Source: Dehalococcoidia bacterium (GTDB lineage: Bacteria; Chloroflexota; Dehalococcoidia; SpSt-223). Taken from it: DNA of 64,000 nucleotides. Each line of letters begins with the position of its first letter. The stretch's first letter is position 1. Shown here one piece after another: positions 41,696 through 60,216 of the stretch. The stretch is taken from NCBI GenBank assembly GCA_046328265.1, contig JAXLWW010000019.1, forward strand, positions 3,370 through 67,369. Direction: 5' to 3'. The position numbers and the translations under genes were made by a program. The notes beneath the pieces were generated by a model. It had not been told where the DNA came from. It saw only the letters and a list, made by a program, of their open reading frames with translations, and ran no database searches.

Positions 41696-43597
41696 CTAGC
41701 GGGCGGCCTGGGAACGCGAGAAGTAGTAGCGGAGGATCCGCCCAACCGCTGGGGCAGCGGTCTGCGGGCCGCCGCCACGTTCATGAAAGACCAGCACGGC
41801 GATCTCGGGGTTTTCGGTCGGGCCAAACGCATAGCACCAGCCGTGTTGGAACTGATAGACGCCGGTCCGGAGGTCGCGCTGACCGAACTCGGCGGTGCCG
41901 GTTTTCGCCGCGATGTGCATCCCCGGTACGTTGGCCTCGCGGGCGGTGCCCAAGTCCCATTCCACGCCCAGCACCATCCCGCGGCTGACGTCGTTCAGAT
42001 TGTTGATATCCACCGGCACCCGCCGGCGGACCTGCTTCTCGAAGCGTTGAACGACGTTGTTGTTGGCATCTCGAACCTCCCTGACGATCAATGGTCGGAG
42101 GAGATCACCACCGTTGGCAAATGCGGTGACCACCATCATCATTTGGAGCGGGGTCACCGCCCAGAAGCCCTGCCCGATGGCCATGTTGTAGGTGTCGCCC
42201 TTGTACCATTCCTCCTCAATCTCACGGAGTTTCCATTGTGGCGTCGGGACAATACCGCCGATCTCGCCAGGCAGGTCGATCCCGCTTGGCTCGCCCAGGC
42301 CAAACGCCCGCGAGTAGGCGGAAAGTCGGTCGACCCCCAGTCCATTGAAATCCTCGTAGCCACCGGCGAGTTGGTAGAAATAGACGTCGCCCGACCGCGC
42401 CATCGCCTGATAGAAGTCCAGCGTGCCGTGGGCGCCCCAGTCACGGAAGATGTAGGTGATCCGGGGATCGATCTCGGAGCGAACTTCGAGGTAACCCTTC
42501 GAGAAGATCTTGGTGTCGATCGTCGCCACTTTTTCCTGAAGAGCCGCCGCGCCGGTGATGAGCTTGTAGATAGATCCGGGCGGAAAATTGTCGCTGATAC
42601 CGTGATTGACCAACGGGCGGGATGGACTTTCGAGCAGTTCGTTCCACTCTCGTTCCGGCACATTTGCCGAAAACAGGTTGTTGTCAAAGCCGGGTAGCGA
42701 GACGAAGGCGAGGAGTTCGCCGGTCTTGATGTCGGTGACGATGCCGACGGCGTACTTCGAATTGCCCATCGTCGAGCGCACCGCTTCGGCCACGACGCTC
42801 TGCAAGTCACTATCGATCGTCAGCACGAGGTTGTCCCCGGCTTGCGGCGCGATTGAATCAAGTTCGCCAACCTGACGCCCCGTGGCATTGACGATGATCT
42901 GCTCTTTGCCCGGGACGCCGCGCAGGGCATCCTCGAAGGAGAGTTCGAGGCCGGTCTTGCCGATACGCTCGTTCATTCCGTAGCCGGCCACCTCAAGGTC
43001 GCGGAATTCCTCATCGGTAATCCGGCCGGTGTAGCCGAGGATGTGCGAGTAGATCGGCCCGCCGAGATATTGGCGCACCGATTCGATGCGAACTTGGACG
43101 CCCGGCAACTTGTCGTTGTTCTCCTCGATGATGAACGCGGTTGTCTGATCGACACCCGACTTGACGATCACCGGCTGAAACACCTCGCCCCGCAGTCGCC
43201 GTTGGGCGATCGGCCGCTCGACATCCTCGGGAAGCATTCGCAGTAGCTTTGCCAACCGCTCGGCCACCCGCGCCTGTTGATCGACGGGCAGGTCAAATGG
43301 TGTGATCGAGACGACAAAGCTTGGGACGTTGCGGACCAGTTGGCGCATGTTGCGGTCGAAGACGACACCGCGCACCGGCGGGATCGCTTGGAGCCGCACT
43401 CGGTTCACCTCAGCGCGGGTCTGAAAACTCCTCCCTTCGACGACCTGGAGCCTCCAAAGCTGAACGACCAGCGTACCGAACAGGAGGAACACCGTCAGGC
43501 GCAGCCCCCACAATCGCAGTCGGATCGCCACCGCAGGGGTGATCCGTGGCCTTTTCGGCGACTTGAACTTCGTACCGCCACCGAGATTGGTCAGCAC
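41696..43597 (-). CDS. mrdA: Penicillin-binding protein 2 (elongation transpeptidase)
   Basis: N-terminal TM helix and dimerisation domain. The transpeptidase motifs are PGSIYK (SxxK) and KTGTAE. Confidence 0.9.
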   Translation of the reverse strand: MLTNLGGGTKFKSPKRPRITPAVAIRLRLWGLRLTVFLLFGTLVVQLWRLQVVEGRSFQTRAEVNRVRLQAIPPVRGVVFDRNMRQLVRNVPSFVVSITPFDLPVDQQARVAERLAKLLRMLPEDVERPIAQRRLRGEVFQPVIVKSGVDQTTAFIIEENNDKLPGVQVRIESVRQYLGGPIYSHILGYTGRITDEEFRDLEVAGYGMNERIGKTGLELSFEDALRGVPGKEQIIVNATGRQVGELDSIAPQAGDNLVLTIDSDLQSVVAEAVRSTMGNSKYAVGIVTDIKTGELLAFVSLPGFDNNLFSANVPEREWNELLESPSRPLVNHGISDNFPPGSIYKLITGAAALQEKVATIDTKIFSKGYLEVRSEIDPRITYIFRDWGAHGTLDFYQAMARSGDVYFYQLAGGYEDFNGLGVDRLSAYSRAFGLGEPSGIDLPGEIGGIVPTPQWKLREIEEEWYKGDTYNMAIGQGFWAVTPLQMMMVVTAFANGGDLLRPLIVREVRDANNNVVQRFEKQVRRRVPVDINNLNDVSRGMVLGVEWDLGTAREANVPGMHIAAKTGTAEFGQRDLRTGVYQFQHGWCYAFGPTENPEIAVLVFHERGGGPQTAAPAVGRILRYYFSRSQAAR

Positions 43598-43601
43598 ATC
43601 A

Positions 43602-44105
43602 TCACCATTCCAGCCGCGGGTGTTTCATCCGCCGGTCGAGCCAACGCGCGAACGGGTAGAACACCAACACCAGCAGCGAGGTTGAGGCCGCAGTGAGCAG
43701 GACAATCGCCGGCATCGGATCGACCAACTCGACCGGGCGGCCAAGCGCCTGAAACATAATGAATCTCAGCCCCTGCAGCACCAGTTCACCCAGAAAGGCG
43801 GTAACCATTGGGAACAGGACATTCGCCGGAATGAGCGGAATTTCGCCAACCGCGGTCAGAAACGCGACCGCGCCAATCAGAAGTCCTGTCAGTCCGAGCG
43901 GCGTATCGCCCCAGAGATCGACGATGAACCCGCCGACAACCCCGAGCGCCACCGCCTGACGGTAGCCGGCAAGCGCTCCCCACGTTACCGTGGCCGCAAG
44001 CATTGCATCGGGCCGGAACGTGGTCGGCAGGACCGCCGGCAACACCGTCACGTGAATCAGTACGACACTCAGTAGGAACAGCCCACTGACCGCCACGTTG
44101 GTCAA
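43602..44105 (-). CDS. mreD: Rod shape-determining protein MreD
   Basis: 167-aa polytopic hydrophobic protein. It overlaps mreC by 4 nt and sits between mreC and mrdA. Confidence 0.7.
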   Translation of the reverse strand: MTNVAVSGLFLLSVVLIHVTVLPAVLPTTFRPDAMLAATVTWGALAGYRQAVALGVVGGFIVDLWGDTPLGLTGLLIGAVAFLTAVGEIPLIPANVLFPMVTAFLGELVLQGLRFIMFQALGRPVELVDPMPAIVLLTAASTSLLVLVFYPFARWLDRRMKHPRLEW

Positions 44106-44929
44106 TCGAGTCCGGCCGGAACGAAATTCATGATGATCTGGACCGAATCGAGGCGAGCAAACTTGACCGCCGGGTCAATCCGGGCTTCTTGGAACAGATC
44201 GACCGGGTTTCGCTTCACCTCGACCACTTGGCCGATATGGAGCCCACGAGGAAAGCTCTCTCCCAATCCGCTGGTTACCACGATATCACCGGCGCGAATC
44301 TCTTCCTGTTGGGGCAAGTAGCGCATCAAGAGGCGATCGCCCGGCAGTCCATTGACCATCCCCAGCGCGCGCGAGTCTGCCCGCTGGATCAGCGCATTCA
44401 CCGAACTGGACGAATCGACGATAAACTGAATTCGTGCGGTCGTTGGCCAGACCTGGACGATCCGGCCGACCAGGTTACCCGCCGGACTGAGCGCGACCAT
44501 CCCTTCGCGGTAGCCGGCATCGACCCCGCGGTCAATCGTGGCAGAACGAACCGGGCTGCTGGGATCCATCGCGATGATTCGGGCAGCAGTCAGGGTGAAC
44601 TGAGGGTTGCGCTTGCGAAAATCAAGCATCGCCCGCAGTCGTTCATTCTCGATATCCGATTCCTGAAGGCGGACAACCTCAGCGTTGAGTTGTTCGACGG
44701 AACGTCGTAGCCGATCGTTCTCCTCGCGCGATGCGCCGGCATCGAGGACGCCGCGCACCAGATCGCCGACCGGGCGTACTGCCGAGGTGGCCACCTGCTG
44801 GACCGGTGCGAAGGCGGCAGCAGCCGCGCCAAGAACGGGCCGGGCGAAGCCGGTGTTGGCTATCCAGATGCCGATGACGGCGAACGCCAGCCAGAGGAGC
44901 GGACCAATCGCAGCGCGGGCGCGGATCAC
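44102..44929 (-). CDS. mreC: Rod shape-determining protein MreC
   Basis: TM anchor, a coiled-coil segment (LRRSVEQLNAEVVRLQESDIENERLRAML), then a beta-barrel domain (VVTSGLGESFPRGLHIGQV). Confidence 0.85.
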   Translation of the reverse strand: MIRARAAIGPLLWLAFAVIGIWIANTGFARPVLGAAAAAFAPVQQVATSAVRPVGDLVRGVLDAGASREENDRLRRSVEQLNAEVVRLQESDIENERLRAMLDFRKRNPQFTLTAARIIAMDPSSPVRSATIDRGVDAGYREGMVALSPAGNLVGRIVQVWPTTARIQFIVDSSSSVNALIQRADSRALGMVNGLPGDRLLMRYLPQQEEIRAGDIVVTSGLGESFPRGLHIGQVVEVKRNPVDLFQEARIDPAVKFARLDSVQIIMNFVPAGLD

Positions 44930-44935
44930 CAGGAG

Positions 44936-46084
44936 CTATCCGTAACGGGGAGGCTTCGTGTATTGCAGTTGGACGAGCACCTTGCGAAGTCGGTCGAGGT
45001 CGTCGAGCACCTCCCCAGTGCCTTTGACCACACACGACAATGGATCGTCGGCGACGTAGACGCGGAACTTCGTTTCGTGGGTCAGTCGTTGGTCCAGGCC
45101 GCGCAGGAGCGCTCCGCCGCCAGCAAGGGCAATCCCAAATTCCATCAGGTCGGTAATCAATTCGGGCGGTGTGATCTCGATGGTCGTTTTGACCGCATCG
45201 ACGATCGCGTTGACCGAATTGGTAATCGCCTCGCGCACCTCGACACTGCTGAGGGTGATCTGCTTGGGCAGTCCGGTGACGACGTCCCGACCCTTCAAGC
45301 TGACTTCGATTTCCTCGTCGAGCGGATAGGCCGACGCCGCCTCAATCTTGATGTGTTCGGCGGTGCGCTCGCCGATCAGAATATTGTGCTTCTGACGAGC
45401 GTAGGTGATGATCTCCTGGTCCATTTCGTCCCCAGCGATCCGGATCGACCTGCTGGCAACGATACCGCCAAGCGAGATCACCGCCACCTCGGTGGTCCCG
45501 CCGCCAATGTCGACGATCATCGACCCGGCCGGCTCCATTACCGGCTGACCAGCGCCAATCGCCGCCGCCATCGGCTCTTCGATGATGTACGCTTCGCGCG
45601 CGCCAGCGTTGAGCGCCGCATCATGGACGGCCCGTTTTTCGACCTCGGTGACGCCGCTGGGGATCCCAATCACCACCCGGGGCTTGGGTACCATAAAGCT
45701 GGTCTTCTCGTGGACCTTGGTGATGAAGTACTGGAGCATCCGCTCGGTCGTCTCGAAATCGGAGATGACGCCGTCGCGCAAGGGGCGGATCGCAACGATG
45801 CTGGCGGGTGTGCGGCCGACCATCCGTTTCGCTTCGGCGCCAACTGCCTGGACCCGGCGGTTCTTCTTGTCATAGGCGACCACCGACGGCTCGTTAATCA
45901 CCACTCCCTTGCCTTTGACGAGGACAAGTGTATTGGCGGTCCCGAGGTCGATTCCGATGTCGTGGGAGAAAAAGCCGAGCAGGCTATTGATCGGGCTGAA
46001 CACCAGATGCGCCCCGGACCCAGCAGTACGTCCCAGGGACGACGGCCCGCTTTCTCGACCGGTCGCCGGGCGGGAGTATACCAC
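44936..46084 (-). CDS. mreB: Rod shape-determining actin homologue MreB
   Basis: Contains DIGIDLGTANTLV...DIGGGTTEVAV. The true start may be the GTG at 46003 (VFSPINSLLGFFSHDIGIDLG), which matches the usual N-terminal length. Confidence 0.95.
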   Translation of the reverse strand: MVYSRPATGRESGPSSLGRTAGSGAHLVFSPINSLLGFFSHDIGIDLGTANTLVLVKGKGVVINEPSVVAYDKKNRRVQAVGAEAKRMVGRTPASIVAIRPLRDGVISDFETTERMLQYFITKVHEKTSFMVPKPRVVIGIPSGVTEVEKRAVHDAALNAGAREAYIIEEPMAAAIGAGQPVMEPAGSMIVDIGGGTTEVAVISLGGIVASRSIRIAGDEMDQEIITYARQKHNILIGERTAEHIKIEAASAYPLDEEIEVSLKGRDVVTGLPKQITLSSVEVREAITNSVNAIVDAVKTTIEITPPELITDLMEFGIALAGGGALLRGLDQRLTHETKFRVYVADDPLSCVVKGTGEVLDDLDRLRKVLVQLQYTKPPRYG

Positions 46085-46219: not shown

Positions 46220-47458
46220 GTGCGTCGCTGGCTCCTGCCTCTCGTCGCCGGCGTGTCGATCCTCACTTCGCCGGTGGTCGCGCCGGTTGCCACCGCCAAC
46301 GGTGTCGGCACGATCTATGTAACCCACGGCGCTGACAATCTCGTCAGTGTCTTGTCCGGCGCCGTCGGCGAAGTCCTTTCGTCAATCGATGTCGGCGCTG
46401 AGCCACGCGCGGTGGTCTACTCAGGCGACGGCCGTTTTGCGTACGTCGCCAATCGTGGGTCGAACACCGTCTCGGTGATCGAAGCGCCGATCGATTCGGT
46501 GGTCAAGACCTATCCGGTTGGCGGGCCGCCCGGCGCGCTCGTGCTCGATCCGACCAATCGCTACCTCTACATCGCCAGCCCGACAAGCAACCAGGTCAAT
46601 GTAATGGACACGGCAACCGGCGCACGCGTCGGGTCGCTCACCACCCACGCTCCGCCCGCTGGGGTCGCCCTGGCCCTCGGCGGCTCCCGGCTCGTCGTCA
46701 CGGTGCCGTCCGAACGCTCGCTGGCACTGTTCGACATTTCCGGCCGGATTGTCTCGACGGTCGTCGTCGGAGACGGAGCCGGTCCGGTCGTCGTTGCGCC
46801 ATCCTCAAATCTTGCTTTCGTTGCCAACGTCGAGAGCAACAGCGTCACGATGGTCGACGTGCTCCGGCGCGAGGCGCTTGCATCAATTGCGGTTGGCCAG
46901 AGCCCATCTGCCCTGGCCGTGGCGCCCGATAGCCGGACGCTCTTTGTCGCCAACGCCGGCAACAACACCATCTCGTTTGTCGACATCGAGGCGGCTCGGG
47001 TGCGGTCGACTCTTGCGGTCGGGCGAGGGCCAAACGCGCTTGCGCTTTCGCCAGATGGCAAGACCCTCTATGTCGTCAATGGCCGTGATGCCACCGTCGC
47101 GGTAATCGACCCGGTCAGCGAGTTGGTGCAAAAGGTCATCAAGGTGAAGGACGACCCGAATGGGATCGCGATTTCGCCGCTTCAGCCGAACCTGTTACCT
47201 GGCGGCCTACCCGGCGTCACTCAGCCAGGCGGTGCGCCGCCCACCTCGGTCACATCGGATTCGCCCCGCCCCGGCGCGACACCGTCGACAGAGCTTCCTG
47301 CCCCGGCGCCGCCTCCCGCGATCGCTCCGCGGCCGCCGGTTCCCGCCGGGCTTCCCCGCACCGGCGATGGCTCCTCCGCCAGAGGAGGAACGACAGTCGG
47401 CCTTGTCTTGGCGGCAATCGGGCTGGTGGCACTGCTGCGGGTTGGAATTCGCCGGTGA
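46220..47458 (+). CDS. LPXTG-anchored YVTN-family beta-propeller repeat protein
   Basis: Signal peptide, then at least 6 repeats of the type YV(A/T)N.G.N.VSVID. A Pro-rich stalk leads to LPRTGDGS, a TM helix and RVGIRR. Confidence 0.8.
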   Translation: MRRWLLPLVAGVSILTSPVVAPVATANGVGTIYVTHGADNLVSVLSGAVGEVLSSIDVGAEPRAVVYSGDGRFAYVANRGSNTVSVIEAPIDSVVKTYPVGGPPGALVLDPTNRYLYIASPTSNQVNVMDTATGARVGSLTTHAPPAGVALALGGSRLVVTVPSERSLALFDISGRIVSTVVVGDGAGPVVVAPSSNLAFVANVESNSVTMVDVLRREALASIAVGQSPSALAVAPDSRTLFVANAGNNTISFVDIEAARVRSTLAVGRGPNALALSPDGKTLYVVNGRDATVAVIDPVSELVQKVIKVKDDPNGIAISPLQPNLLPGGLPGVTQPGGAPPTSVTSDSPRPGATPSTELPAPAPPPAIAPRPPVPAGLPRTGDGSSARGGTTVGLVLAAIGLVALLRVGIRR

Positions 47459-48291
47459 ACGGTGACCGGCTAGGCCAGACGCGGCCTTGTGAATATCTTG
47501 GCAACGAGGACGATCGCTGGGCGCGCAGTTCGATCCCGTGGCCAGGCCATCGTTGCCATGTCGGCGGCAAGCCCGGCGAGATCGCGAGAGTTCAGCAGGG
47601 GCTATTCTGCCTCACCAGTAACCATGCAAACTGCCCGTCCTTCGTGCTTGCCAAGGGCCTTCTCGATGCGGCCGAGGCGGAACTTCCCCCGCCGCCACTC
47701 TCCGCCCCACCACGCCGGACCCTTCGCTCGCTGCTGCCCGGCAGCGGCGCCCTGATCCGGATTGGTCTCATCGCTTCGATAGTCCTGTTTGTGATTGCTC
47801 TAGATGGCAGCATCCTTCGGCCATTCGGGCAGACGGCGGCGCGCTCGGCATCGGTATCTACTCCCGCCTCAACGGTGACGACCTACACGCTTTTTCCGCC
47901 GACCCGCACGCCACCGCAAGCACCGGCGCCGATCTCGACGCCGAGCCCACCGCTTCCAACCCCGACCATCATCCCACCCACTCCCGCGCCCCGATTTGAC
48001 CCGCCACCGGCGGACGGTCAGGCGAGAATCGCGATGGTGCCGGGGTCGGGCCCGCGCGGGAGCCGGGTAACGGTCACCGGCACCGGTTGGTCGCCGCAAG
48101 CGGAACTGGCGGTTCGCTGGGGCCGTGCCGCAAGCGAGGAGGGCGTTGTGGAACTCGTCCGAACGCGAACCGGGGAGACGGGATCGTTCACCGGCAGCGT
48201 CCTCTTGCCACGCGACCTTGGCGGCACGATCTGGGTCAGCATTCGCCAAGGAGATCGCGCGGCGTACGTACCTTTCTCGGTGGCGGACTAG
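47455..48291 (+). CDS. Single-pass membrane protein with an N-terminal Cys/His motif domain and a C-terminal beta-rich ectodomain
   Basis: The GTG start overlaps the upstream stop (GTGA). The N-terminus is RPCEYLGNEDDRW...PGHRCHVGG...GLFCLTSNHANCPSF. A TM helix (LIRIGLIASIVLFVIAL) and a Pro/Thr linker follow, then a terminal domain of about 85 aa. Confidence 0.65.
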   Translation: MNGDRLGQTRPCEYLGNEDDRWARSSIPWPGHRCHVGGKPGEIARVQQGLFCLTSNHANCPSFVLAKGLLDAAEAELPPPPLSAPPRRTLRSLLPGSGALIRIGLIASIVLFVIALDGSILRPFGQTAARSASVSTPASTVTTYTLFPPTRTPPQAPAPISTPSPPLPTPTIIPPTPAPRFDPPPADGQARIAMVPGSGPRGSRVTVTGTGWSPQAELAVRWGRAASEEGVVELVRTRTGETGSFTGSVLLPRDLGGTIWVSIRQGDRAAYVPFSVAD

Positions 48292-48912
48292 GTGAAACGG
48301 CGCGCGTTTCTCGGCCTGGCCGGTTTGTTCTTGTTGCCGGCATGTGACGACTCGCCGGTGATCGCACGCCCATCTGCGACACCGACCGCCACTACCCAGC
48401 CCACCGCCGTGCCCGCTCAGTTGATCCCCACCGTGGCGAGACGCCAACCGGCGATCGCACCGGTTTATCTGCCACCGGTACGTCTGCGGATGCCACGAAT
48501 CGGCGTCGATACGCCGGTCAAAGAGGTGGGCCTAGACACGGCCGGCGAGTTGGTCGTGCCGACCACCGGAGAGTACGCCGTCTGGTATGGAGGCAGTCCG
48601 CCGCCGGGACTAACCGGCAACGCCATCTTGGCTGGCCACGTCGACTGGGGCGGCAAGATCGCCGTATTCTTTCGGCTCAAGGAACTCGGACCAGGTGACC
48701 AGATCGAGACGGTCGCGGCCGATGGCGCACTGCGCCGCTTCGTCGTGACCTCGAACACGGCCTACGAGCCCGCGAAGGCACCGCTCGATCGGATCTATGG
48801 CCCAACCAGTCACCCGGCGGTCACGCTGATCACCTGTGGCGGTGTCTTCTTGAGCGACCGACGCGATTACTCGCTTCGGATCGTGGTGCGCGGCGAACTC
48901 ACCGACCGCTAG
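48292..48912 (+). CDS. Sortase (class E/F-like)
   Basis: The GTG lies immediately after the upstream TAG. A lipoprotein-like N-terminus is followed by the catalytic His (NAILAGHVDW), Cys (VTLITCGG) and Arg (LRIVVRG). Confidence 0.85.
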   Translation: MKRRAFLGLAGLFLLPACDDSPVIARPSATPTATTQPTAVPAQLIPTVARRQPAIAPVYLPPVRLRMPRIGVDTPVKEVGLDTAGELVVPTTGEYAVWYGGSPPPGLTGNAILAGHVDWGGKIAVFFRLKELGPGDQIETVAADGALRRFVVTSNTAYEPAKAPLDRIYGPTSHPAVTLITCGGVFLSDRRDYSLRIVVRGELTDR

Positions 48913-48967: not shown

Positions 48968-48996
48968 TTGCTCGGGCGCAAGGGGTTCGATATACT
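48968..48996 (+). promoter_or_regulatory. Putative sigma-70 promoter (TTGCTC-N17-TATACT) of the response regulator gene
   Basis: The -35 lies at 48968-73 and the -10 at 48991-96, 27 nt upstream of the ATG at 49024. Confidence 0.5.
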
Positions 48997-49023: not shown

Positions 49024-49713
49024 ATGAGCACGGAACAGCGGAAGATCCGCGTGCTGCTGGTTGACGATCACACGCTCGTTCGCCAAGGACTGCGCCAACT
49101 CCTCGAGATCGAGCCAGATCTCGAGGTGATCGGCGAGGCCGCCGATGGCGCTGAAGTCAACGACCGGGTTCGAGAGTTCCACCCCGATGTCATCTTGATG
49201 GACATCAACATGCCGATTGTCGACGGTGTCGCCGCCACCCGGCAGGTCCTCAAGGAGTTTCCCGATGTCGGGATCATCATGCTCAGCATGTACCGCCAGG
49301 ATCAGTATGTCTTCGAAGCGGTGCGCGCCGGAGCCCGCGGCTATCTCCTCAAGAGCGCCCGCTCGACCGAGGTAATCGCGGCAATCCGCGCCGTCGCGAA
49401 TGGCGCAGCGTTGATCGACCCGACGATCGCCGGCAATTTGCTCAAGGAGTTTCAGCGGTTGGCGCCGGGGGGAACGAGTTCGTCGGGCGCCCGCCTTGAG
49501 CAACTGACCGAGCGCGAAACAGACATCTTGCGACTCCTTTCGACCGGGGCGTCAAACAAGGAGATCGCTTCGACGCTGTATCTCTCTGAGAAGACTGTCA
49601 AGAACTACCTCAGCACGATCTTCAAGAAACTCCAACTCAACGACCGGGTTCAGGCCGCCACCTATGCTGTCCGCCAGGGAATCACCCCACAGCGACAGGC
49701 GGACGACCTCTAA
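49024..49713 (+). CDS. NarL/LuxR-family two-component response regulator (no adjacent kinase)
   Basis: Receiver domain (VLLVDDHTLVRQGL...DVILMDINMP) plus a C-terminal LuxR HTH (LTERETDILRLLSTGASNKEIASTLYLSEKTVKNYLSTIFKKL). Confidence 0.9.
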   Translation: MSTEQRKIRVLLVDDHTLVRQGLRQLLEIEPDLEVIGEAADGAEVNDRVREFHPDVILMDINMPIVDGVAATRQVLKEFPDVGIIMLSMYRQDQYVFEAVRAGARGYLLKSARSTEVIAAIRAVANGAALIDPTIAGNLLKEFQRLAPGGTSSSGARLEQLTERETDILRLLSTGASNKEIASTLYLSEKTVKNYLSTIFKKLQLNDRVQAATYAVRQGITPQRQADDL

Positions 49714-49789
49714 CCGGAACCTCATGACGTCCTGCGACGTATCATTCAACGACATGGCGCAGCGCGCCGACGTATGAGGGGGACAGATC

Positions 49790-50506
49790 ATGGCTGGCTA
49801 TAGCTCGATCCTCGATCGGGTCAGTCTGCTGGTCTCGGCAAATATCAATGCCCTGCTGGACAAGGCGCTCAGCCTGAACCGGCTGGCCGTCTTCGACGAA
49901 TACATCAACCGGATGGGTGAAGCCCTGGAGTCTCTCCAGACCGCCGAGGGGATCGAGCGAGGTCGGACGCGCACGTTGATGCGGCAACTCGAGGAGACCG
50001 AAGCCGAGACGACCCGCCTGGACGACGATGTCGATCGCCTGTTGCAAAAGGGCGAGCGGGGTCTGGCCGCGGCGCGCCAGGCGGTGCTCAACACCAAACT
50101 CGGTTTGCTCGAGGACGTTCGCGAGAACCTCCAACAGTCGCAACTCGAAGCCCAGAAGTTGGGCGACGCCAAGGGTAAGCTGCAAGCTCAGATCGAAGTC
50201 ACGAAGGCGCGCCGTCAGGAACTGGTGTCGCTTATTGAGCAGAAGCGGGCGAGCGACCTGCGGCTCCGCGCTCAGGAAGGCGTCCGCGATATTGGCGACA
50301 AGACCAAGACCGATGCGCTGGTCGAGCGAGCCCGCCAGGAATTGGATGTCGCTCAGGGCAAGGAGGAGGCGGCGCGCGACAGCTTGGAAGCTCGGATCGA
50401 TGAAGTTCTCGGCGCCGACGAGATCGAGGGCCAATTGGCCGCCCGCGAGACGCGCCTTGGCTTGGCCTCCGGTGACACGCGGCAGCTACCCGAAGGTTCT
50501 CGCTAA
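49790..50506 (+). CDS. pspA: PspA/IM30 (phage-shock protein A / LiaH-like) family protein
   Basis: The N-terminus MAGYSSILDRVSLLVSANINALLDKA matches the family N-terminus. The 238 aa are almost entirely heptad-like helix. GAGGGGG precedes the ATG. Confidence 0.8.
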   Translation: MAGYSSILDRVSLLVSANINALLDKALSLNRLAVFDEYINRMGEALESLQTAEGIERGRTRTLMRQLEETEAETTRLDDDVDRLLQKGERGLAAARQAVLNTKLGLLEDVRENLQQSQLEAQKLGDAKGKLQAQIEVTKARRQELVSLIEQKRASDLRLRAQEGVRDIGDKTKTDALVERARQELDVAQGKEEAARDSLEARIDEVLGADEIEGQLAARETRLGLASGDTRQLPEGSR

Positions 50507-50530
50507 GCCACCTCTCACGAAAGGAGCGCC

Positions 50531-51700
50531 ATGCGCGCCCCCACTCGGCTGCTGATCGCGCTGCTGTTCGGCGGTCTCTTGATCGTCGGCGCGATGGTCG
50601 CCGTCTTCTTCTTGGTCGATCGCCCACGAAACAGCGGGCCGGTTACTGTCCGCGTCGTGACTGCCCTGCCGGCTGAACCCTGGGTGAGCGCCGCGGCTCA
50701 CAGCTACAACGCGACCAAGCCGACCATCGACGGCGCTCCCGTCACGGTTGAAGTTGTCCCGATGGACGGGGTCTCGGCGCTTGGCCGTTGGTCAAAGGGC
50801 GACTGGGACCGAGTACCGACCGCCTGGCTGGCCGAGACCCGCGATTGGGTCGGTCAGGCCAACGTTGCCGTCTCCGAGCGTATCGGTCGTGACGTCTTCC
50901 TGCCCGGCGGCGAGTATCGCGATCAGCCGGTCGCGCTATCGCCGGAAGTCTGGGCAATCTTCGAATCACGCTACAAAGTGCTCAATGCTCGGTACGGCCA
51001 GGACGGTGATGTCGATTGGCAGGATGTGCACGATGCCGCCGTCAGCCGGAACTGGCCGGCGATTGGTGGGCAAAGCGAGTGGGGCCGCTTCAAGCTCGTC
51101 ATTCCCCATCCAAAGCGTGACCCGGCTGGTCTGGCCGCGATGGTCGCTGCCGCCGGTGCCTATTACGGCAAGTCGAGTGTCTCGACCGACGACCTGAAGA
51201 ACCCGCAGTTTCAGGCCTGGCTGCGCGAAACCCTTGATTCGGTGGTCGACTTCAGTCCATTTGGCGTGGAGAACATGCTGCTGTTCGGCTATTCCAACGG
51301 CGATGCCGGCCAGGTCATCGAAAGCTACCTGCTCACCAACATGGAGGGATTGCAGCGCCGTTGGAAGGAGCCGTTGGTCATCCTCTATCCGGACCCGATC
51401 ACCTGGTTTGACTTCCCATTCGCCATCTACATGGGGCCGGAAACGCCTGCTGCCGAGAAGAATGCCGCGCTCGACTTCAAGCGCTACCTCTTGAGCACCG
51501 AGCAGCAACAAAACGCCCTGCGCTATGGTCTGCGTCCTGCGAACCCGGATGTTCCAACCAACGTCGAAGGAAGTCTGCTTACTCGCTGGAGCGCAATGGG
51601 TTTCCGCGACCAGGTGCCGAGCGCTTCCCGCATGAGACCGGCCTCGCGCAGCGGCCTGACTGAATTGCTCAATTGGTTCGTCAAGACGTACGAGCAGTAG
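50531..51700 (+). CDS. N-terminally anchored extracytoplasmic protein, solute-binding-protein-like; paralogue of the N-terminal part of the next gene
   Basis: TM helix (LLIALLFGGLLIVGAMVAVFFLV). By eye, blocks align with 51702..53360, for example FKLVIPHPKRDPAGLAAMVAAAGAYYG with FRWSHPSSASASGLLAVTAEFYAG, and PLVILYPDPITWFDFPFAI...RYGLRPAN with KLVAVYPAEGSLWLDHPLAL...DEGYRPAD. Confidence 0.65.
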   Translation: MRAPTRLLIALLFGGLLIVGAMVAVFFLVDRPRNSGPVTVRVVTALPAEPWVSAAAHSYNATKPTIDGAPVTVEVVPMDGVSALGRWSKGDWDRVPTAWLAETRDWVGQANVAVSERIGRDVFLPGGEYRDQPVALSPEVWAIFESRYKVLNARYGQDGDVDWQDVHDAAVSRNWPAIGGQSEWGRFKLVIPHPKRDPAGLAAMVAAAGAYYGKSSVSTDDLKNPQFQAWLRETLDSVVDFSPFGVENMLLFGYSNGDAGQVIESYLLTNMEGLQRRWKEPLVILYPDPITWFDFPFAIYMGPETPAAEKNAALDFKRYLLSTEQQQNALRYGLRPANPDVPTNVEGSLLTRWSAMGFRDQVPSASRMRPASRSGLTELLNWFVKTYEQ

Positions 51701-51701
51701 C

Positions 51702-53360
51702 ATGCGAAGCATCCGCTGGATTGTCATCGGGGTTCTCGCCTGCAATGCCATCATGTTCTGCGGTGGGTTGGCGGCGATCTTGCTGTTGCCATCGCCGGAA
51801 CAGCGAGGGGATGATCCGAACGTGCTGCGCGTCGCCTATTCGCCCGAGAAGGAGACGCTCTTTCGCGCTCTCGCCGACGGCTTCAATCGCTCTGGCTCAC
51901 GGTTCCGGGTCGAGGCGGTTAAGCTCGATCCCGAGGAGTTGGTCGAACAGGCAACCTCCGGACGCCTCGCGGCCGTTTCACCAGATTCGGCGATCTGGCT
52001 CGACCAAATCGACCGGGCCTGGCAGGCGAAGAACCTCGACTCGGCGGGTCTGACCAGCGCTTTGGCGCGCTACGCGGTCTCGCCGATCGTGATCGCGATG
52101 TGGGAGCCGACCGCTCGGGAATTCAACTATCCGCAGCGTCAAGTTGGCTGGGTCAGCGTGATGGACCGCGCGCTGCGCGATTCGGGCTTTCGTTGGAGCC
52201 ATCCCTCTTCTGCTTCGGCGAGTGGTTTGTTGGCGGTGACGGCGGAGTTTTACGCCGGCGCAGGTAGCCCACCACGTCTGAGCGTTCAGGACATCCAACG
52301 CCCCGAGACCCTCGACTACGTCCGTCAGATTCAGCGCACCGTCCAGCAGTATGGCGGTGAGACTGAGGATCAACTCGCGCAACGCCTGCTTTCGGGCGAG
52401 GGCCGGAATCTGGATGCCTTCGTTGTCCAAGAGCAGTTTGTCGTCATGTTCAACAGCCGCTCGCCTGCTGACAAACTGGTGGCGGTTTACCCGGCGGAAG
52501 GTAGCCTCTGGCTTGACCACCCGCTCGCGTTGCTCGAAGGGCCCTGGCTGACCGACCCTCAACGCCAGGCCTACCGTGCGTTTGTCGACTACCTTGCGAG
52601 GCCCGAGATCGGCCAACTCGTTCTCGACGAAGGCTATCGGCCAGCCGACTTGAAGGTGCCGATCGACGAGCGCACCTCGCCGATCCGTCGTGAGAACGGG
52701 GTCGACCCGGCCCAACCGTTCACCTCGCTCGTCCTTCCGTCGACGCCGGTGCTCGAACGGATCCGAGATTCGTGGGCGCTACTGAAGCGCCCGGCAAATA
52801 TCTACCTCATCGCCGACGTATCGGGAAGCATGCAGGGAGACCGGCTGACACGCGCCCGCGAAGCGCTGCTTTCCTTTATCGATCAAATCAAGGACGGGCG
52901 CGACCGGGTGGGACTGGCGACCTTCTCGACGGCGACGCGTGAGCAGGTTGGGCTTGACAGCCTTGACAAGAACCGCGCCGCGCTCGAGAGCGCAATCCGC
53001 GCGATGAGCGCCTCGGGAAACACCGCGCTCTATGACGCAATCGACTTTGGAGTGCAGCGAGTTGGCGACCTGAAAGAGAACGACCGGATCAACGTGGTCG
53101 TGGTGATGACCGACGGTGAGGAGAACGCCAGTCGGCGTGATCTGGTCGCCGGCCGGGGCGACCCAAGCCGAATCATTGCGGCGATTCAGGAGCACGCCCG
53201 CCGCAGCGGAACGCCGGTACTGGTCTTCACAATCGCCTATGGCGGCGAGGCCGAACTTGACGTGTTGCGCCGGATTGCCGAATCGGCCAACGGCCAGGCC
53301 TACCGCAGCGACCCGGAGACCATCCGCAAGCTCTATCGCACTCTGTCGCAGACGTTCTGA
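51702..53360 (+). CDS. N-terminally anchored solute-binding-like domain fused to a C-terminal von Willebrand factor A domain
   Basis: The start lies 1 nt after the upstream stop. The vWA domain has an intact MIDAS: IYLIADVSGSM (DxSxS)...SGNTALYDA...VVVMTDGEEN. Confidence 0.8.
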   Translation: MRSIRWIVIGVLACNAIMFCGGLAAILLLPSPEQRGDDPNVLRVAYSPEKETLFRALADGFNRSGSRFRVEAVKLDPEELVEQATSGRLAAVSPDSAIWLDQIDRAWQAKNLDSAGLTSALARYAVSPIVIAMWEPTAREFNYPQRQVGWVSVMDRALRDSGFRWSHPSSASASGLLAVTAEFYAGAGSPPRLSVQDIQRPETLDYVRQIQRTVQQYGGETEDQLAQRLLSGEGRNLDAFVVQEQFVVMFNSRSPADKLVAVYPAEGSLWLDHPLALLEGPWLTDPQRQAYRAFVDYLARPEIGQLVLDEGYRPADLKVPIDERTSPIRRENGVDPAQPFTSLVLPSTPVLERIRDSWALLKRPANIYLIADVSGSMQGDRLTRAREALLSFIDQIKDGRDRVGLATFSTATREQVGLDSLDKNRAALESAIRAMSASGNTALYDAIDFGVQRVGDLKENDRINVVVVMTDGEENASRRDLVAGRGDPSRIIAAIQEHARRSGTPVLVFTIAYGGEAELDVLRRIAESANGQAYRSDPETIRKLYRTLSQTF

Positions 53361-54109
53361 TGGCAAACTCGATTGAACGGCGAACCATCGGAGCGGTCCT
53401 GCTCTATGGACTGGGCCGTTGGCAGAGCGCGGTCGTCGTTTTGGCTGCTTGCGCCGGTGTCGCTGCGACGATCCTGCTGTTGCACGCCAACCTCGCGCTG
53501 ATCGCCGCCTGGATCGCCTTTGGCGTGGTCGGCGTCGCTGGGATGGTCGTCGTCACTTTTCGCGACTCCAACGCCGTCCAAGATGCGCTCAGCCCGGAGA
53601 TCGATCTGTCGAGGTTGCGAACTCCTGCCCTTCGTGACGCCGTCCGCCGGGCTCAAGACTATCGCGAGGCGATCCGCCGGGCAGTCGGCGAGGTGCCAAA
53701 CCCCGAGCTACGCGCCAGTCTCGAAACCATCACCTACCGCTTCGACGACCCTGCCGCTCTGATCCTTTCGCTCGGCCAGAGCATCGAGCGGTTCCAGGCG
53801 GACACCCTAATCCAGAACGATCTTAAGCGGCTGCGCGGTCTCAAACGCGCCGACCGTCTCGACGAGCATGAACGGGAACAACTCGACAATCTCCTCCGCT
53901 TGGAGGGATTGGTTGGCGAGGCCGACGAGAAAATCCGAGCGATGTTGGCGCAACTTGGATCGAGCTATGCTGAGGTCCAGACGATTGGCGCGGCGGGCGA
54001 GATCCGCGGTGGGCGAATGCAACAAGCGCTCGATAGCGTTGGCGACCGGGCCGCCGAGTTGACCCAGATCAGTCAAGCCCTCGACGAAGTCTATGCTGCT
54101 CCGTCCTGA
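53360..54109 (+). CDS. Membrane protein with two N-terminal TM helices and a long helical (coiled-coil-like) C-terminal region; TelA/XpaC-like architecture
   Basis: The ATG overlaps the upstream TGA (TGATG). The TM helices are AVVVLAACAGVAATILLL and IAAWIAFGVVGVAGMVVV. A helical region of about 170 aa follows, rich in E/R/L/A. Confidence 0.6.
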   Translation: MANSIERRTIGAVLLYGLGRWQSAVVVLAACAGVAATILLLHANLALIAAWIAFGVVGVAGMVVVTFRDSNAVQDALSPEIDLSRLRTPALRDAVRRAQDYREAIRRAVGEVPNPELRASLETITYRFDDPAALILSLGQSIERFQADTLIQNDLKRLRGLKRADRLDEHEREQLDNLLRLEGLVGEADEKIRAMLAQLGSSYAEVQTIGAAGEIRGGRMQQALDSVGDRAAELTQISQALDEVYAAPS

Positions 54110-54342
54110 TCGCTCGGCTGTCGTCGACTTCCTGGGTGATCTGGCGGGGATCGCGGGGGTATCCTAGGATGAGCGCCTGGGCCGGTCGGAGGCGGGCCAA
54201 GCTGATGATTCAGAAGCTCGTTTGGCAGCAGGTCATCGAGACGTGTCGCAAGTAGGGGCAGGCGCCTTTGAGTGGCGCCAACGTGACGAGATGACCGACT
54301 CGGAACGTCGGGCTCGGCCCGGCATCGAAAGGAGGTACCGAC

Positions 54343-54609
54343 GTGGCTCTTGATCCAGGCGGATTCTTGGCCTGGCTGGTGGTCGGGCTGATCGCGGGCG
54401 CTCTCGCGAGCGCCTTGACCGGCAACCGGTCGGGGTGCATCGGCAGCCTGATCCTTGGTCTGGTCGGCGCGTTCGTTGGCGGCTTCATCTTCTCGCTGCT
54501 GGGTCTGGGTGGCGCGTTTGGCGCGCAAGCCGGCTTCCTTGGCAGTATCGTGGTCGCCTTTATCGGAGCGGTGGTTCTGATCGCGATTGGCCGGCTGATT
54601 TTTCGCTAG
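54343..54609 (+). CDS. GlsB/YeaQ/YmgE-family stress-response membrane protein
   Basis: 88 aa with a Gly-rich three-helix pattern (LVVGLIAGALAS...GSLILGLVGAFVGGFIF...GSIVVAFIGAVVLIAI). The GTG lies 7 nt after AAGGAGG. Confidence 0.8.
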   Translation: MALDPGGFLAWLVVGLIAGALASALTGNRSGCIGSLILGLVGAFVGGFIFSLLGLGGAFGAQAGFLGSIVVAFIGAVVLIAIGRLIFR

Positions 54610-57618: not shown

Positions 57619-58221
57619 ATGCCGACAGATACTGCCGCAATCAGCCGAGCGTTGCTCCGGATTGCCCAGGCCGCCCGCCGCCAAGTCCGCTCGGACAACC
57701 TCGGTCTGACGCCTGCCCAGTCGCAAACGGTCCTGTTCTGCGGGCGTACTCGGCCGGATTTCGCCTCGATTGGTCATCTCTCTCAGGCGCTCGGCGCAAC
57801 CCACGCGACCGCCGTCGGGATCGTCGACGGACTGGTGCGGCGGGGACTGATCGAGCGGCGCGCGAAATTGGATGACCGCCGAGTCACTCTTCTGACGCTT
57901 ACCAACTCAGGCCAGCAGGTCTTTGCCGCCCTTACCGAGAGCAGCAACATCCTCGACCAGGCGATTGAGCGCCTCGAACCCGCCCAACGCGACGCTCTGC
58001 TGGATGCCGTACGTTCACTCGGGCGGATGCTGGCGCATGAAGGCGCTATCCAGGTTAGCGAGCCCTGCGCTGGGTGCACTCACTTCTTTCCGCACGAGCA
58101 ACCGAGCCAAGATCGACCACATTTCTGCCGGTCGCTTCGGCAGCACTTGAACGCGATCGAGATCCTCCTCGAATGTCCGCGCTTTACACCGGAGACAACT
58201 TCGGTTTCTTCACGCTCCTAG
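57619..58221 (+). CDS. MarR-family transcriptional regulator with a Cys-rich C-terminal extension
   Basis: Winged-helix core ([11 protein letters not shown]...[45 protein letters not shown]). An extra tail, [42 protein letters not shown], carries 4 Cys. Confidence 0.8.
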
Positions 58222-58332
58222 CTGCTCCTCGTGTCACGCCGAATATCCGTACGCGGCGACGCCGTCTGAGCCAAAATGACGTCGGTCGCATTCAGACGGG
58301 TCGTTTCGGTCAATTCTTCGAGGAGGGACAGC

Positions 58333-60216
58333 GTGAAGATCCGCCTACTTCTCAGCCTGGCAGCCACCCTGGTCGCCTTTCTCATCGTTGCCTTGGTGAC
58401 CTGGACCGAGCCAAACGTCAAGGTCGATGCTGCCGATTTCGAGATCACCTTCACCAACTTCCAATACAGCCCGGCCAACGTCACGGTCGCCCCGGGCGAT
58501 TCGGTGGTCTGGAAGGGCGCCTTCTCCAGCCATCCCCTCGTCAGTCAGGACGGCCTCTGGCCTAGCCATAGTTCCGGCTCGGTGTTCACCCAGACCTTCC
58601 CGACCACCGGGGAGTTCTTCTTTTATTGCCAGATTCACGGCTCGCCGAATGGAGTCGGGATGGCCGGCAAGATCACCGTCCAGGGCGCTGGGGCAAGCCC
58701 GACACCAACCGGCAGTCCGAACAGCACCCCAACCAGCACCCCGACGACACCGGCTTCGCCAACTGTGACGCCCACCGTTCCGGCCGGCCCGGTTGGAGCC
58801 AACGTCTCTCGCCGCCTCATGGCGGTGCTCAGTAGCTCGAACGAGGTCCCGACCAACACCAGTGCCGCAATCGGCTACGCCCGGATCGAGGTGTCGGACG
58901 ACCTGACTCAGGTCAGCTACTACCTATCCTCGACCATCACCAACACGACGGTTGCCCACATTCATCTCGGTAAGTTCGGCGAGAACGGCCCGCCGATCAT
59001 CACCCTCGCATCGACGGGTGGATTCACCGAAGTACATGGATTGGCCGCCATCACACCGGAAATCGCGGCGGCGCTCTTTTTCCGCGGGCTCTACGTCAAC
59101 GTCCATTCCGCGACCTATCCCGGTGGTGAAATCCGCGGGCAACTGGTCGGGATGTTCGAGTTTGGGACCCGGATGACCGGCGCTCTCGAGGCGCCACCCA
59201 ACGCCCAGTCGTCCACCGGCAACTTCCGAATGTGGCTTTGGCCGGATCTTTCCCGGCTCGACTACGTGATGACCCACACCGTCGCCGGCGCAACCGCCGC
59301 ACACATCCACCGAGCGCTGCCCGGGGTCAAAGGGCCGGTGGTCGTCCCGCTTGACTCTGGTTCTTCGGTATCCGGCACCGCAACTATCACGCCCGGGGGA
59401 CTGTACGACCTCCTCGCCGGAAACTGGTACGTCAATGTCCATTCGCCCGGCTTCCCCGATGGCGAAGTACGCGGTCAACTTGGGCTCAATCACCAGTTCC
59501 AGGCGGTGCTCCAGGAGAGCAATGAAGTGCCGCCCAATGGCAGCGCCAATACCGGGTCGGCGTCCTTCGTCTTCGATCGTCAGAATCTCCGGCTTCACTA
59601 CGTCCTGTCGACGACCGTGACGAATACCGTTGCTGCTCATATCCACGTCGGTGGCTTCGGGGCAAATGGCCCGGTGTCCTACAGCCTGGCAAGCACGGCC
59701 GGCTTTACCGCCGTTCGCGGCGCAATTTCGCTCGACCCGGCGCTCGTCGCCCTGCTGGAGACCGGCGGGCTCTACGTCAACGTTCACTCAGCCGTTTTGC
59801 CAGGTGGCGAGATTCGTGGGCAGATCTACGGTCCGGAACTGTTCACCGCACGAATGACACCTCAGCAGGAGACCTCGCCGGTCGACAATCAGTATCTCGG
59901 CCGGGCCTATGTCCTGGTCAACGACGGACGAAACGGCTTGATCTACGCAATTACTCATGACGTCGTCAGCCCAATAGCGGCGCACATCCACCGCGGTCCA
60001 CCGGGAACACCCGGTCCGGTGGTCTATCCGTTGAGTTTCGCGAACCAAGCGTCCGGCTGGAGCGGACTTTCGGCCGCTGACCTGCGTGACCTGGATTACG
60101 GGAACCTGTACGTCAACATTCACAACGGCGCCTTCCCGGCCGGAGCAATCCGTGGTCAGTTGACAAGCGGAACGCGTCAACTGCTCGGAACGGTGTTCCG
60201 GAACAGCAGGCCCTAA
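58333..60216 (+). CDS. Membrane-anchored cupredoxin domain fused to four tandem CHRD domains
   Basis: The start was set to the GTG at 58333, 5 nt after GGAGGG; the track ORF starts at 58276. After a TM anchor comes a type-1 copper-like domain (SSHPL...FFFYCQIHGSPNGVGMAGKITV). A Thr/Pro linker follows, then four repeats of NEVP...(T/A)AHIH.G..G..GPV...YVN(V/I)H...P.G(E/A)(I/V)RGQ(L/I). Confidence 0.8.
   Translation: MKIRLLLSLAATLVAFLIVALVTWTEPNVKVDAADFEITFTNFQYSPANVTVAPGDSVVWKGAFSSHPLVSQDGLWPSHSSGSVFTQTFPTTGEFFFYCQIHGSPNGVGMAGKITVQGAGASPTPTGSPNSTPTSTPTTPASPTVTPTVPAGPVGANVSRRLMAVLSSSNEVPTNTSAAIGYARIEVSDDLTQVSYYLSSTITNTTVAHIHLGKFGENGPPIITLASTGGFTEVHGLAAITPEIAAALFFRGLYVNVHSATYPGGEIRGQLVGMFEFGTRMTGALEAPPNAQSSTGNFRMWLWPDLSRLDYVMTHTVAGATAAHIHRALPGVKGPVVVPLDSGSSVSGTATITPGGLYDLLAGNWYVNVHSPGFPDGEVRGQLGLNHQFQAVLQESNEVPPNGSANTGSASFVFDRQNLRLHYVLSTTVTNTVAAHIHVGGFGANGPVSYSLASTAGFTAVRGAISLDPALVALLETGGLYVNVHSAVLPGGEIRGQIYGPELFTARMTPQQETSPVDNQYLGRAYVLVNDGRNGLIYAITHDVVSPIAAHIHRGPPGTPGPVVYPLSFANQASGWSGLSAADLRDLDYGNLYVNIHNGAFPAGAIRGQLTSGTRQLLGTVFRNSRP

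Follow-up and report, generated by a model that had tools for sequence, protein, structure and literature searches.

A pspA locus with an unusual set of partners

A 64,000-nucleotide stretch of contig JAXLWW010000019.1 from a Dehalococcoidia bacterium (assembly GCA_046328265.1; the whole stretch is hereafter referred to as the window) carries a gene for a member of the PspA/IM30 family of bacterial ESCRT-III proteins. It is followed on the same strand by genes for two transmembrane (TM)-anchored proteins with a solute-binding-protein (SBP) fold, the second of which is fused to a von Willebrand factor A (vWA) domain, and by a gene for a 249-residue protein with two TM helices and a long helical region, for which we use our own name P249 (Table 1). 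A response regulator (RR) gene lies upstream, and a gene for a small membrane protein of the GlsB/YeaQ/YmgE type downstream. The four-gene core recurs, in the same order, at distant loci of the phylum Chloroflexota and probably represents a new form of bacterial membrane-stress system.

An earlier reading of the sequence (the original prediction) had proposed six open reading frames (ORFs) at this locus. All six were confirmed together with their spacing, and their domain content was confirmed by Pfam and NCBIfam scans of the six proteins, the profile-based check that the prediction itself had suggested. The tight packing of the four core genes was likewise borne out on the sequence: pspA and the SBP gene are separated by 24 nt, the SBP and SBP-vWA genes by 1 nt, and the SBP-vWA and P249 genes share a 1-nt TGATG overlap. 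The RR stop codon lies 76 nt ahead of the pspA start, and 233 nt separate the P249 gene from the GlsB start. No intrinsic terminator was detected after the P249 gene or between the operon genes, with all terminator-like matches located within coding sequence.

Table 1 Features of the pspA locus, of its surroundings in the window, and of related loci (L numbers).
Feature	Position	Strand	Remarks
Promoter-like TTGCTC-N17-TATACT, 5' of RR gene	48968-48996	+	read from the sequence
RR gene	49024-49713	+	Response_reg 98 bits, GerE 71 bits (Pfam)
Direct repeat in RR-pspA spacer	49735-49778		two copies, 34 nt apart start to start
pspA	49790-50506	+	divergent PspA/IM30 (ESCRT-III-type), 238 aa, soluble
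SBP gene	50531-51700	+	TM-anchored extracytoplasmic solute-binding fold, 389 aa
SBP-vWA gene	51702-53360	+	TM-anchored SBP fold and vWA domain, 552 aa
P249 gene	53360-54109	+	249 aa, TM hairpin and all-helical region
GlsB/YeaQ/YmgE (Transgly_assoc) gene	54343-54609	+	small membrane protein, PF04226 42.9 bits
ABC ATPase gene	24285-25268		sole ABC ATPase found in the window
PBP2-type transpeptidase and MreB-like genes	41696-46084	-	PBP_dimer and Transpeptidase domains
Surface-protein cassette	46220-48912	+	directly upstream of RR gene
MarR-type regulator gene	57619-58221		adjoins CHRD protein gene
CHRD protein gene	58276-60216	+	646 aa, four CHRD domains (324 bits)
STAND-winged-helix regulator	L013:2457-3830	same as pspA	takes the position of the window RR
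STAND-winged-helix regulator	L018:3774-5141	same as pspA	takes the position of the window RR
STAND-winged-helix regulator	L019:4365-5741	same as pspA	takes the position of the window RR
Small 2-TM ORF	L013:4807-5055		between pspA and SBP gene
Small 2-TM ORF	L018:6139-6357		between pspA and SBP gene; weak PLDc_N match
NfeD and Band_7 genes	L015:8893-10493		between P249-like and Peripla_BP_6 genes
P249-position protein gene	L019:9693-10508		271 aa
OpuAC-fused variant block	L022:5194-15085		fusions of 854 aa and 720 aa, extra OpuAC protein
BTAD protein P0101 gene	L021:438-2216		contains a P249-like domain

The first gene encodes a divergent PspA

The window PspA scores 20.5 bits against PF04012, below the Pfam cut-off of 33.9, and 28 bits against TIGR02977, also below the NCBIfam cut-off, the latter match aligning residues 6–220 with positions 2–214 of the 219 profile positions. 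When a family profile built from 17 members was compared to the solved Vipp1/PspA protein 6zvr, the alignment was full-length (residues 7–236 to 3–232, E = 1.3e-5). The family profile thus displays the similarity that defines PspA/IM30/Vipp1 membership, which extends over both the amphipathic helix at the N-terminus and the helical hairpin. The N-terminus has the typical ...SANINALLDKA motif, and PF04012 matches at E ≤ 1e-5 are recorded for the operon-linked orthologues in L013–L019. Judged from its sequence, the window protein is a divergent but genuine PspA/IM30.

A word-indexed search returned 47 homologues, with all taxon-labelled ones being Chloroflexota proteins or Dehalococcoidia proteins from metagenome-assembled genomes (MAGs). 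The closest relatives are hot-spring Dehalococcoidia and Chloroflexota MAGs (e.g. KatS3mg060), and two close relatives were among the matches listed in a scan of genome contigs with the PspA alignment.

The four-gene core is conserved well beyond close relatives

We examined 15 other distinct loci, chosen by homology to the operon's own genes and with near-identical duplicate contigs counted once; the neighbourhood census comprised 12 exact-protein look-ups and four metagenome loci. Conservation of the partners beside pspA in related genomes was a point on which the original prediction had been staked in advance, and it was found: of the 15 loci, 12 (one of them truncated) preserve the order of the four genes, with identities falling as low as 35% for PspA and 26% for P249. 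These loci span Dehalococcoidia-type and, with less certainty, probably Anaerolineae-type Chloroflexota. Intergenic gaps are short or the genes overlap, predicted topology is conserved, and the N-terminal anchors of both SBP proteins as well as the P249 TM hairpin are kept in all loci checked.

The 12 loci fall into three groups. Group A (L006, L007 and L020, PspA 72–89% identical) retains the order RR-PspA-SBP-SBPvWA-P249, with synteny reaching the sortase block and PriA. In group B (L002/3, L008, the truncated L010 and L011, PspA 55–60%) the four genes are followed by a Peripla_BP_6 gene, the RR and GlsB genes are absent, and the flanks are unrelated. Group C (L013/14, L015/16, L017, L018 and L019, PspA 35–38%) was reached via distant P249 homologues (26–29% identity) or randomly picked SBP-vWA homologues (~46%), and shows the same four-gene order, again followed by a Peripla_BP_6 gene. 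The other three loci depart from this pattern. At L004/5 (group D, PspA 59%) the gene for a P249 homologue (36% identity, E = 7e-52) comes directly after pspA, with no other partner, L001 (group E, PspA 44%) encodes PspA alone, and L022 (group F) encodes an SBP, an OpuAC-SBP-vWA and a PBP6-OpuAC protein, with a CesT-PspA pair 5 kb downstream.

The comparison adds two elements to the picture drawn from the window. A fifth gene is present in most lineages, encoding a type I periplasmic-binding (Peripla_BP_6, PBP6) lipoprotein with a lipobox-containing signal peptide; no homologue of it was found in the window. Furthermore, the minimal conserved unit is the PspA-P249 pair, since its occurrence without ectodomain genes at L004/5 shows it to be self-standing.

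Could these genes simply be inherited side by side, without forming a functional unit, and the 'PspA' be a generic coiled-coil protein? The window PspA does fall under the Pfam and NCBIfam cut-offs, and the closest relatives (L006, L007 and L020) are syntenic region-wide, unrelated genes included. This explanation is contradicted by the neighbourhood data of groups B and C, as the block is kept where all flanks differ (L002, L013, L015, L017, L018 and L019), while the full-length profile alignment to Vipp1/PspA and the PF04012 matches of the distant operon copies argue for a true PspA. We therefore consider it highly improbable.

Several loci carry additional genes. At L015, the P249-like gene is separated from the Peripla_BP_6 gene by genes for NfeD and a stomatin/flotillin-type Band_7 protein. 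Small ORFs of 72–82 aa with two predicted TM helices lie between pspA and the SBP gene of L013 and L018, the latter with a weak PLDc_N match. In the L022 variant, both the SBP-vWA protein (854 aa) and the Peripla_BP_6 protein (720 aa) carry fused OpuAC domains, and an extra OpuAC protein is encoded; the PspA found 5 kb downstream has a CesT/YbjN protein and an M50B peptidase as its partners.

Two anchored ectodomain proteins share a solute-binding fold

The SBP protein matches SBP_bac_8 (27.2 bits) and SBP_bac_11 (26.7 bits), both barely exceeding the curated Pfam cut-offs, and is predicted to be anchored by a TM helix at residues 7–28. The SBP-vWA protein scores 75.6 bits with VWA (PF00092) and 53.3 bits with SBP_bac_11. 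It was originally described as a paralogue of the SBP protein fused to a vWA domain with an intact metal-ion-dependent adhesion site (MIDAS), and both points were upheld: the two proteins are 23% identical over ~370 aligned positions (E = 1e-9), and the residues of the DxSxS...T...D motif (D372-x-S374-x-S376, T441 and D471) are invariant across 40 homologues. Neither protein has a lipobox, each possessing one N-terminal hydrophobic anchor.

An AlphaFold2 (AF2) model of the SBP-vWA protein has a mean predicted local distance difference test score (pLDDT) of 87.6. Foldseek comparison of its SBP domain returned FbpA, FutA1, Sbp and PotF (target-normalised TM-score 0.63–0.69), which are ferric-, sulfate- and polyamine-binding proteins, and the model shows the two-lobed fold of a class II SBP. 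The best fold matches of the vWA domain are the ITIH1/ITIH4 heavy-chain vWA domains (E = 3e-12 to 2e-11). The SBP-vWA family has at least 1416 homologues, generically annotated as 'VWA domain-containing' or 'Ca-activated chloride channel family', and the taxon names in the best 120 listed are all Chloroflexota or Anaerolineae. A scan of viral contigs with the SBP-vWA alignment gave generic vWA matches only. No MoxR AAA+ gene, as in MoxR-vWA/Bat-type systems, was found in the window operon or related loci.

The solute-binding fold raises the question of transport. In such a scheme the SBP-fold proteins would serve an ABC transporter encoded elsewhere, their linkage to pspA reflecting co-regulation under nutritional or toxic-ion stress; candidate substrates are an oxyanion, iron or a polyamine, and amino acids for PBP6. 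The fold itself, closest to FbpA, Sbp and PotF, is in keeping with this role, as is the common occurrence of TM-anchored SBPs in monoderm bacteria. OpuAC domains are fused in the L022 variants, and at L013/14 Liv-type permease and ATPase genes, located a few kb upstream beyond the regulator, could pair with the Peripla_BP_6 protein. That locus is an exception, however: no permease or ATPase gene was found in the fetched flanks of 11 of the 12 related loci, where short contigs give little flank. No cognate permease or ATPase gene was found around the window operon either; a single ABC ATPase gene was found in the window, ~25 kb upstream. Moreover, an SBP-vWA fusion is not a transport architecture, and both P249 and the fixed gene order would be left unexplained. 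We consider a transport function quite improbable.

A different proposal starts from the observation that the ectodomain proteins are the most conserved of the operon, with identities at the most distant loci of 45–52% for SBP and 45–48% for SBP-vWA, compared to 35–38% for PspA and 26–29% for P249. This would be expected if the primary function resided in a surface complex of SBP, SBP-vWA and PBP that has its own job (adhesion, nutrient or metal capture, wall or S-layer tethering) and takes no part in sensing or PspA control, PspA and P249 being co-expressed merely to protect the membrane at insertion. MIDAS-containing vWA domains are classic adhesion modules, with ITIH heavy chains as the top fold matches here, a sortase and LPXTG-substrate cluster lies directly upstream in the window, and the three binding proteins persist at L022, in whose fetched flanks no 2-TM helical gene of P249 size was called. 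On the other hand, the PspA-P249 pair occurs without ectodomain genes, the strict gene order and overlapping stop/start codons suggest a stoichiometric complex as opposed to loose co-expression, and no precedent was found in literature searches. We judge this proposal to be on the unlikely side.

P249 is a candidate membrane partner of PspA

P249 is predicted to consist of an N-terminal TM hairpin (approximately residues 23–66) and an all-helical remainder. The AF2 model has a mean pLDDT of 76, with residues 80–249 mostly above 80 (block means 71–95), and shows a helical bundle. Arg residues (R7, R8 and R20) precede TM1, and an RD pair and a basic helix follow TM2. This charge distribution supports an N-in, C-in topology, with both termini predicted in the cytoplasm and the helical bundle therefore on PspA's side of the membrane.

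An exhaustive profile search of 1.84 billion representative proteins yielded 227 P249 relatives, none of the family members being assigned to a Pfam family; cluster look-ups gave no taxon names for the distant homologues. A search of P249 against PDB sequence profiles returned nothing meaningful, and Foldseek found no PDB fold match at E < 0.1, with designed or generic helical bundles only at E > 0.1. The protein had been labelled 'TelA/XpaC-like', and this label is unproven. The cut-off for PF10112 (XpaC, Halogen_Hydrol) is 29.8 bits, and the match to it reaches 19.4 bits (E = 1.1e-3), covers residues 34–124, for the most part in the TM hairpin, and recurs at E < 0.01 in two of 45 family members, while TelA (PF05816) gave no match at E ≤ 0.1 in Pfam or NCBIfam and no PDB sequence or fold match.

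We considered whether P249 could be an ESCRT-III paralogue with a membrane anchor and rejected this idea, as hhalign comparison of P249 alignments with the PspA alignment gave a probability below 1%. A weak Snf7 match (PF03357, E = 1.6e-4, residues 186–267) was observed in the 271-aa protein at the P249 position of L019; given the negative family profile comparison with PspA, this is probably coiled-coil noise.

The P249 gene always ends the PspA-SBP-SBPvWA block or directly follows PspA. We regard P249 as a small orphan family and a candidate PspA membrane partner. In a few relatives, P249-like domains with two TM helices also form the C-terminal module of cytoplasmic Ser/Thr kinases (P0123/P0356, P0158 and P0186), which is in keeping with a cytoplasmic helical bundle. 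A further P249-like domain is present, again C-terminally, in the BTAD protein P0101 of L021, close to a vWA-FHA protein and an extracytoplasmic function (ECF) sigma/anti-sigma pair, with no pspA found near it within the 8.8-kb contig.

The upstream regulator varies by clade

The window RR is of the NarL/LuxR type, with a receiver (REC) domain and a GerE helix-turn-helix domain, and scores below every NCBIfam equivalog cut-off. No histidine kinase was detected by Pfam among the 20 other large window ORFs or among the six genes of the locus, bearing out the original prediction of an orphan regulator. The proposed TTGCTC-N17-TATACT promoter is present ahead of the RR gene. It was not called by a consensus scan, the -35 hexamer matching at three of six positions, yet, despite diverged flanks, L006 and L007 retain both hexamers and their 17-nt spacing without change.

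The spacer between the RR gene and pspA contains two copies of the direct repeat CGACGTAT, a repeat that L006 and L007 do not share. We looked here for a conserved site of RR binding and set the idea aside: three relatives have in common only a CGTA core and, behind the RR stop codon, GGAACC, which is insufficient.

A same-strand regulator lies upstream in most loci, with its type varying by clade. The NarL-type RR is restricted to the window, L006, L007 and L020, which form one clade with overall synteny. Three independent loci (L013, L018 and L019) encode at the same position a 455–458-aa protein that joins an nSTAND1/AAA_16 NTPase at its N-terminus to an OmpR-type winged helix (Trans_reg_C) at its C-terminus. 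No homologue of this protein was found in the window, and L017 has a lone receiver (REC only) upstream of the operon. Hence, the suggested LiaR-like control is at most lineage-specific.

Neighbouring genes in the window

The GlsB gene had been noted as a flanking stress gene, and its family and position are correct. Its place in the module is not supported: it lies downstream of the operon only in L006 and L007, and is absent from L020, at 72% PspA identity, and from all more distant loci. From these comparisons GlsB is judged an incidental neighbour.

The cassette directly upstream of the RR gene, syntenic in L006, L007 and L020, encodes a 412-aa YNCE/lactonase-type beta-propeller protein ending in LPRTG, a hydrophobic stretch and an RR (Arg-Arg) tail (a sortase substrate), a 278-aa Pro-rich protein without Pfam match and a sortase (PF04203). 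Further upstream, the PBP2-type transpeptidase and MreB-like genes indicate that this Dehalococcoidia-class genome encodes rod-shape and peptidoglycan machinery. Downstream of the operon are the PriA and L19 genes, as well as a protein that combines a cupredoxin-like N-terminal region with four CHRD domains, adjoined by a MarR-type regulator and a glyoxalase-fold protein.

Comparison to known PspA systems

To our knowledge, the targeting and control of PspA/ESCRT-III are established for a few model lineages only, in the form of PspBC/F, LiaI/FSR and ClgR/PspM. None of the partner types described for Psp, Lia or mycobacterial systems had been recognised at this locus, and the scans agree: no Pfam or NCBIfam match to PspB/C/F, LiaI/F, Toastrack, PspM/N, PspAA/AB or Band-7 was obtained for the six window proteins.

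The proteobacterial Psp system (pspF-pspABCDE) resembles the present operon in that PspA is co-encoded with integral membrane partners thought to sense the membrane and bind PspA. In contrast, the window lacks the bacterial enhancer-binding protein PspF as well as PspB, PspC, PspD and PspG, and the partners here are far larger and mostly extracytoplasmic; neither PspB, PspC nor a sigma-54 activator was found in the six window proteins or related loci, so this is not a classical Psp system. In the Lia system of B. subtilis (liaIH-liaGFSR), the PspA-family protein LiaH is encoded beside LiaI, a small membrane protein that anchors LiaH under stress, and the NarL/FixJ-type LiaR controls transcription, reminiscent of the NarL-type RR directly upstream of pspA in the window. 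This RR is the only Lia-type element: there is no match to LiaI, LiaF or Toastrack and no kinase among the 20 other large ORFs, the operon has no LiaF, LiaS or LiaG, P249 bears no LiaI/LiaF-TM or Toastrack signature, and the RR is clade-specific. The three extracytoplasmic binding proteins of the Chloroflexota operons have no Lia counterpart. In the mycobacterial ClgR-PspA-PspM-PspN system (Rv2745c-Rv2742c), too, a transcription factor is encoded upstream in the PspA operon and a membrane protein, PspM, tethers PspA. This system differs in regulator type and lacks SBP and vWA genes, and P249 showed no detectable homology to a known partner.

Firmicutes possess an envelope-stress-induced XpaC-TelA (YaaN) pair, which in Listeria is part of the LiaSR response (PMC12791056). 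XpaC, with two TM helices and a helical cytoplasmic part, resembles P249 in build, and P249 gives a weak PF10112 match; unlike that pair, the operon has no TelA gene or domain, and the P249 match is sub-threshold and mainly in the TM region. Band-7 is a published PspA partner (PMC11237479), and the NfeD and Band_7 genes of L015 recall the Band-7/flotillin/NfeD contexts described there and in B. subtilis pspA-ydjGHI. These genes are absent from the window and the other loci, and are thus accessory here.

The nearest published idea is found in section 18 of the main survey of phage shock protein (PSP) partners (PMC11237479), which describes operons that encode PspA/Snf7, an AAA+ ATPase, an ABC transporter and a solute-binding protein of the PBPb-OmpA type. 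Both arrangements link a PspA-family gene to an extracytoplasmic solute-binding-fold protein, and they differ in every partner, the Chloroflexota operon featuring SBP_bac_11-type proteins, vWA and P249. In the text and one supplementary file of this survey, the terms vWA, Willebrand, SBP_bac and Peripla_BP do not occur, and Chloroflexi appear solely in connection with PspAA fusions and a PspC protein. Our literature searches found no description of this operon.

A role in anti-phage defence was also considered and rejected. PADLOC returned no match for PspA, SBP, SBP-vWA, the STAND regulators or PBP6, and a marginal LeoBC match only for P249 (16 bits, E = 1e-3).

A model for the PspA operon and its significance

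As it is conserved across Chloroflexota and absent from the published catalogue of PspA partners, the four-gene set probably constitutes a bacterial membrane-stress system of a new form. The original prediction of an undescribed envelope-stress module therefore stands as far as the partner set is concerned, which is real, conserved and unmatched by described partners; GlsB falls outside the module, LiaR-like control would at best apply to this lineage, the TelA/XpaC label is unproven, and the suggested recruitment or regulation of PspA is plausible.

We favour, with a probability of roughly 0.55, a Chloroflexota-specific PspA membrane-stress module encoded by one operon, with P249 as the PspA receptor and the ectodomain proteins as sensor or scaffold. 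While the conservation of the operon is observed directly, the mechanism is one we infer. P249 would act as the membrane receptor or regulator of PspA, by analogy to the role of LiaI, PspB/C or PspM elsewhere, its TM hairpin holding the helical bundle at the cytoplasmic side of the membrane. The two anchored proteins with SBP folds, joined in most lineages by the type I PBP lipoprotein, would form an extracytoplasmic ligand- or envelope-sensing scaffold, in which the vWA MIDAS could provide a metal-dependent protein-protein contact. Coupling of this scaffold via its TM helices to the P249 hairpin would allow a change outside the cell to alter PspA recruitment or polymerisation inside. Expression would be set by the upstream regulator of each clade, here presumably a phosphorylatable NarL-type RR with its kinase encoded elsewhere, leading to stress-inducible transcription.

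A number of observations weigh against this model. The neighbourhood sample is small and its 15 loci were picked via homology to operon genes. L001 has no partner near a PspA that is 44% identical to that of the window. L022 keeps SBP, SBP-vWA and PBP with its PspA 5 kb away and paired with CesT, and no P249-sized 2-TM helical gene was called in the fetched flanks of this locus, where the P249 profile was not run. Homology of P249 to any known PspA partner was not detected, nor was a structural analogue, and the structural neighbours of the SBP fold bind iron, sulfate, polyamines or sugars. Co-transcription of the four genes is deduced solely from their spacing, and the PspA-P249 and ectodomain contacts of the scheme are putative, following from gene linkage.

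It is also conceivable, if speculative and rather doubtful, that ligand or metal binding by the ectodomains gates site-specific ESCRT-III recruitment or polymerisation through P249. If true, this would be the first ligand-gated ESCRT-III targeting in bacteria, with a possible use in membrane repair at defined sites or in outward vesicle budding.

The analysis assigns a genomic context to a generically annotated vWA family of at least 1416 members and to an orphan family of 'hypothetical proteins', and widens the published list of PSP partners to include Chloroflexota, a phylum barely covered in the text and one supplementary file of PMC11237479. The operon offers a concrete alternative arrangement for PspA control, conserved across the phylum, and P249 is a candidate for a new family of membrane receptors. 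Through such a module, extracytoplasmic ligand-binding proteins could make membrane remodelling of the ESCRT-III type responsive to the state of the cell surface.

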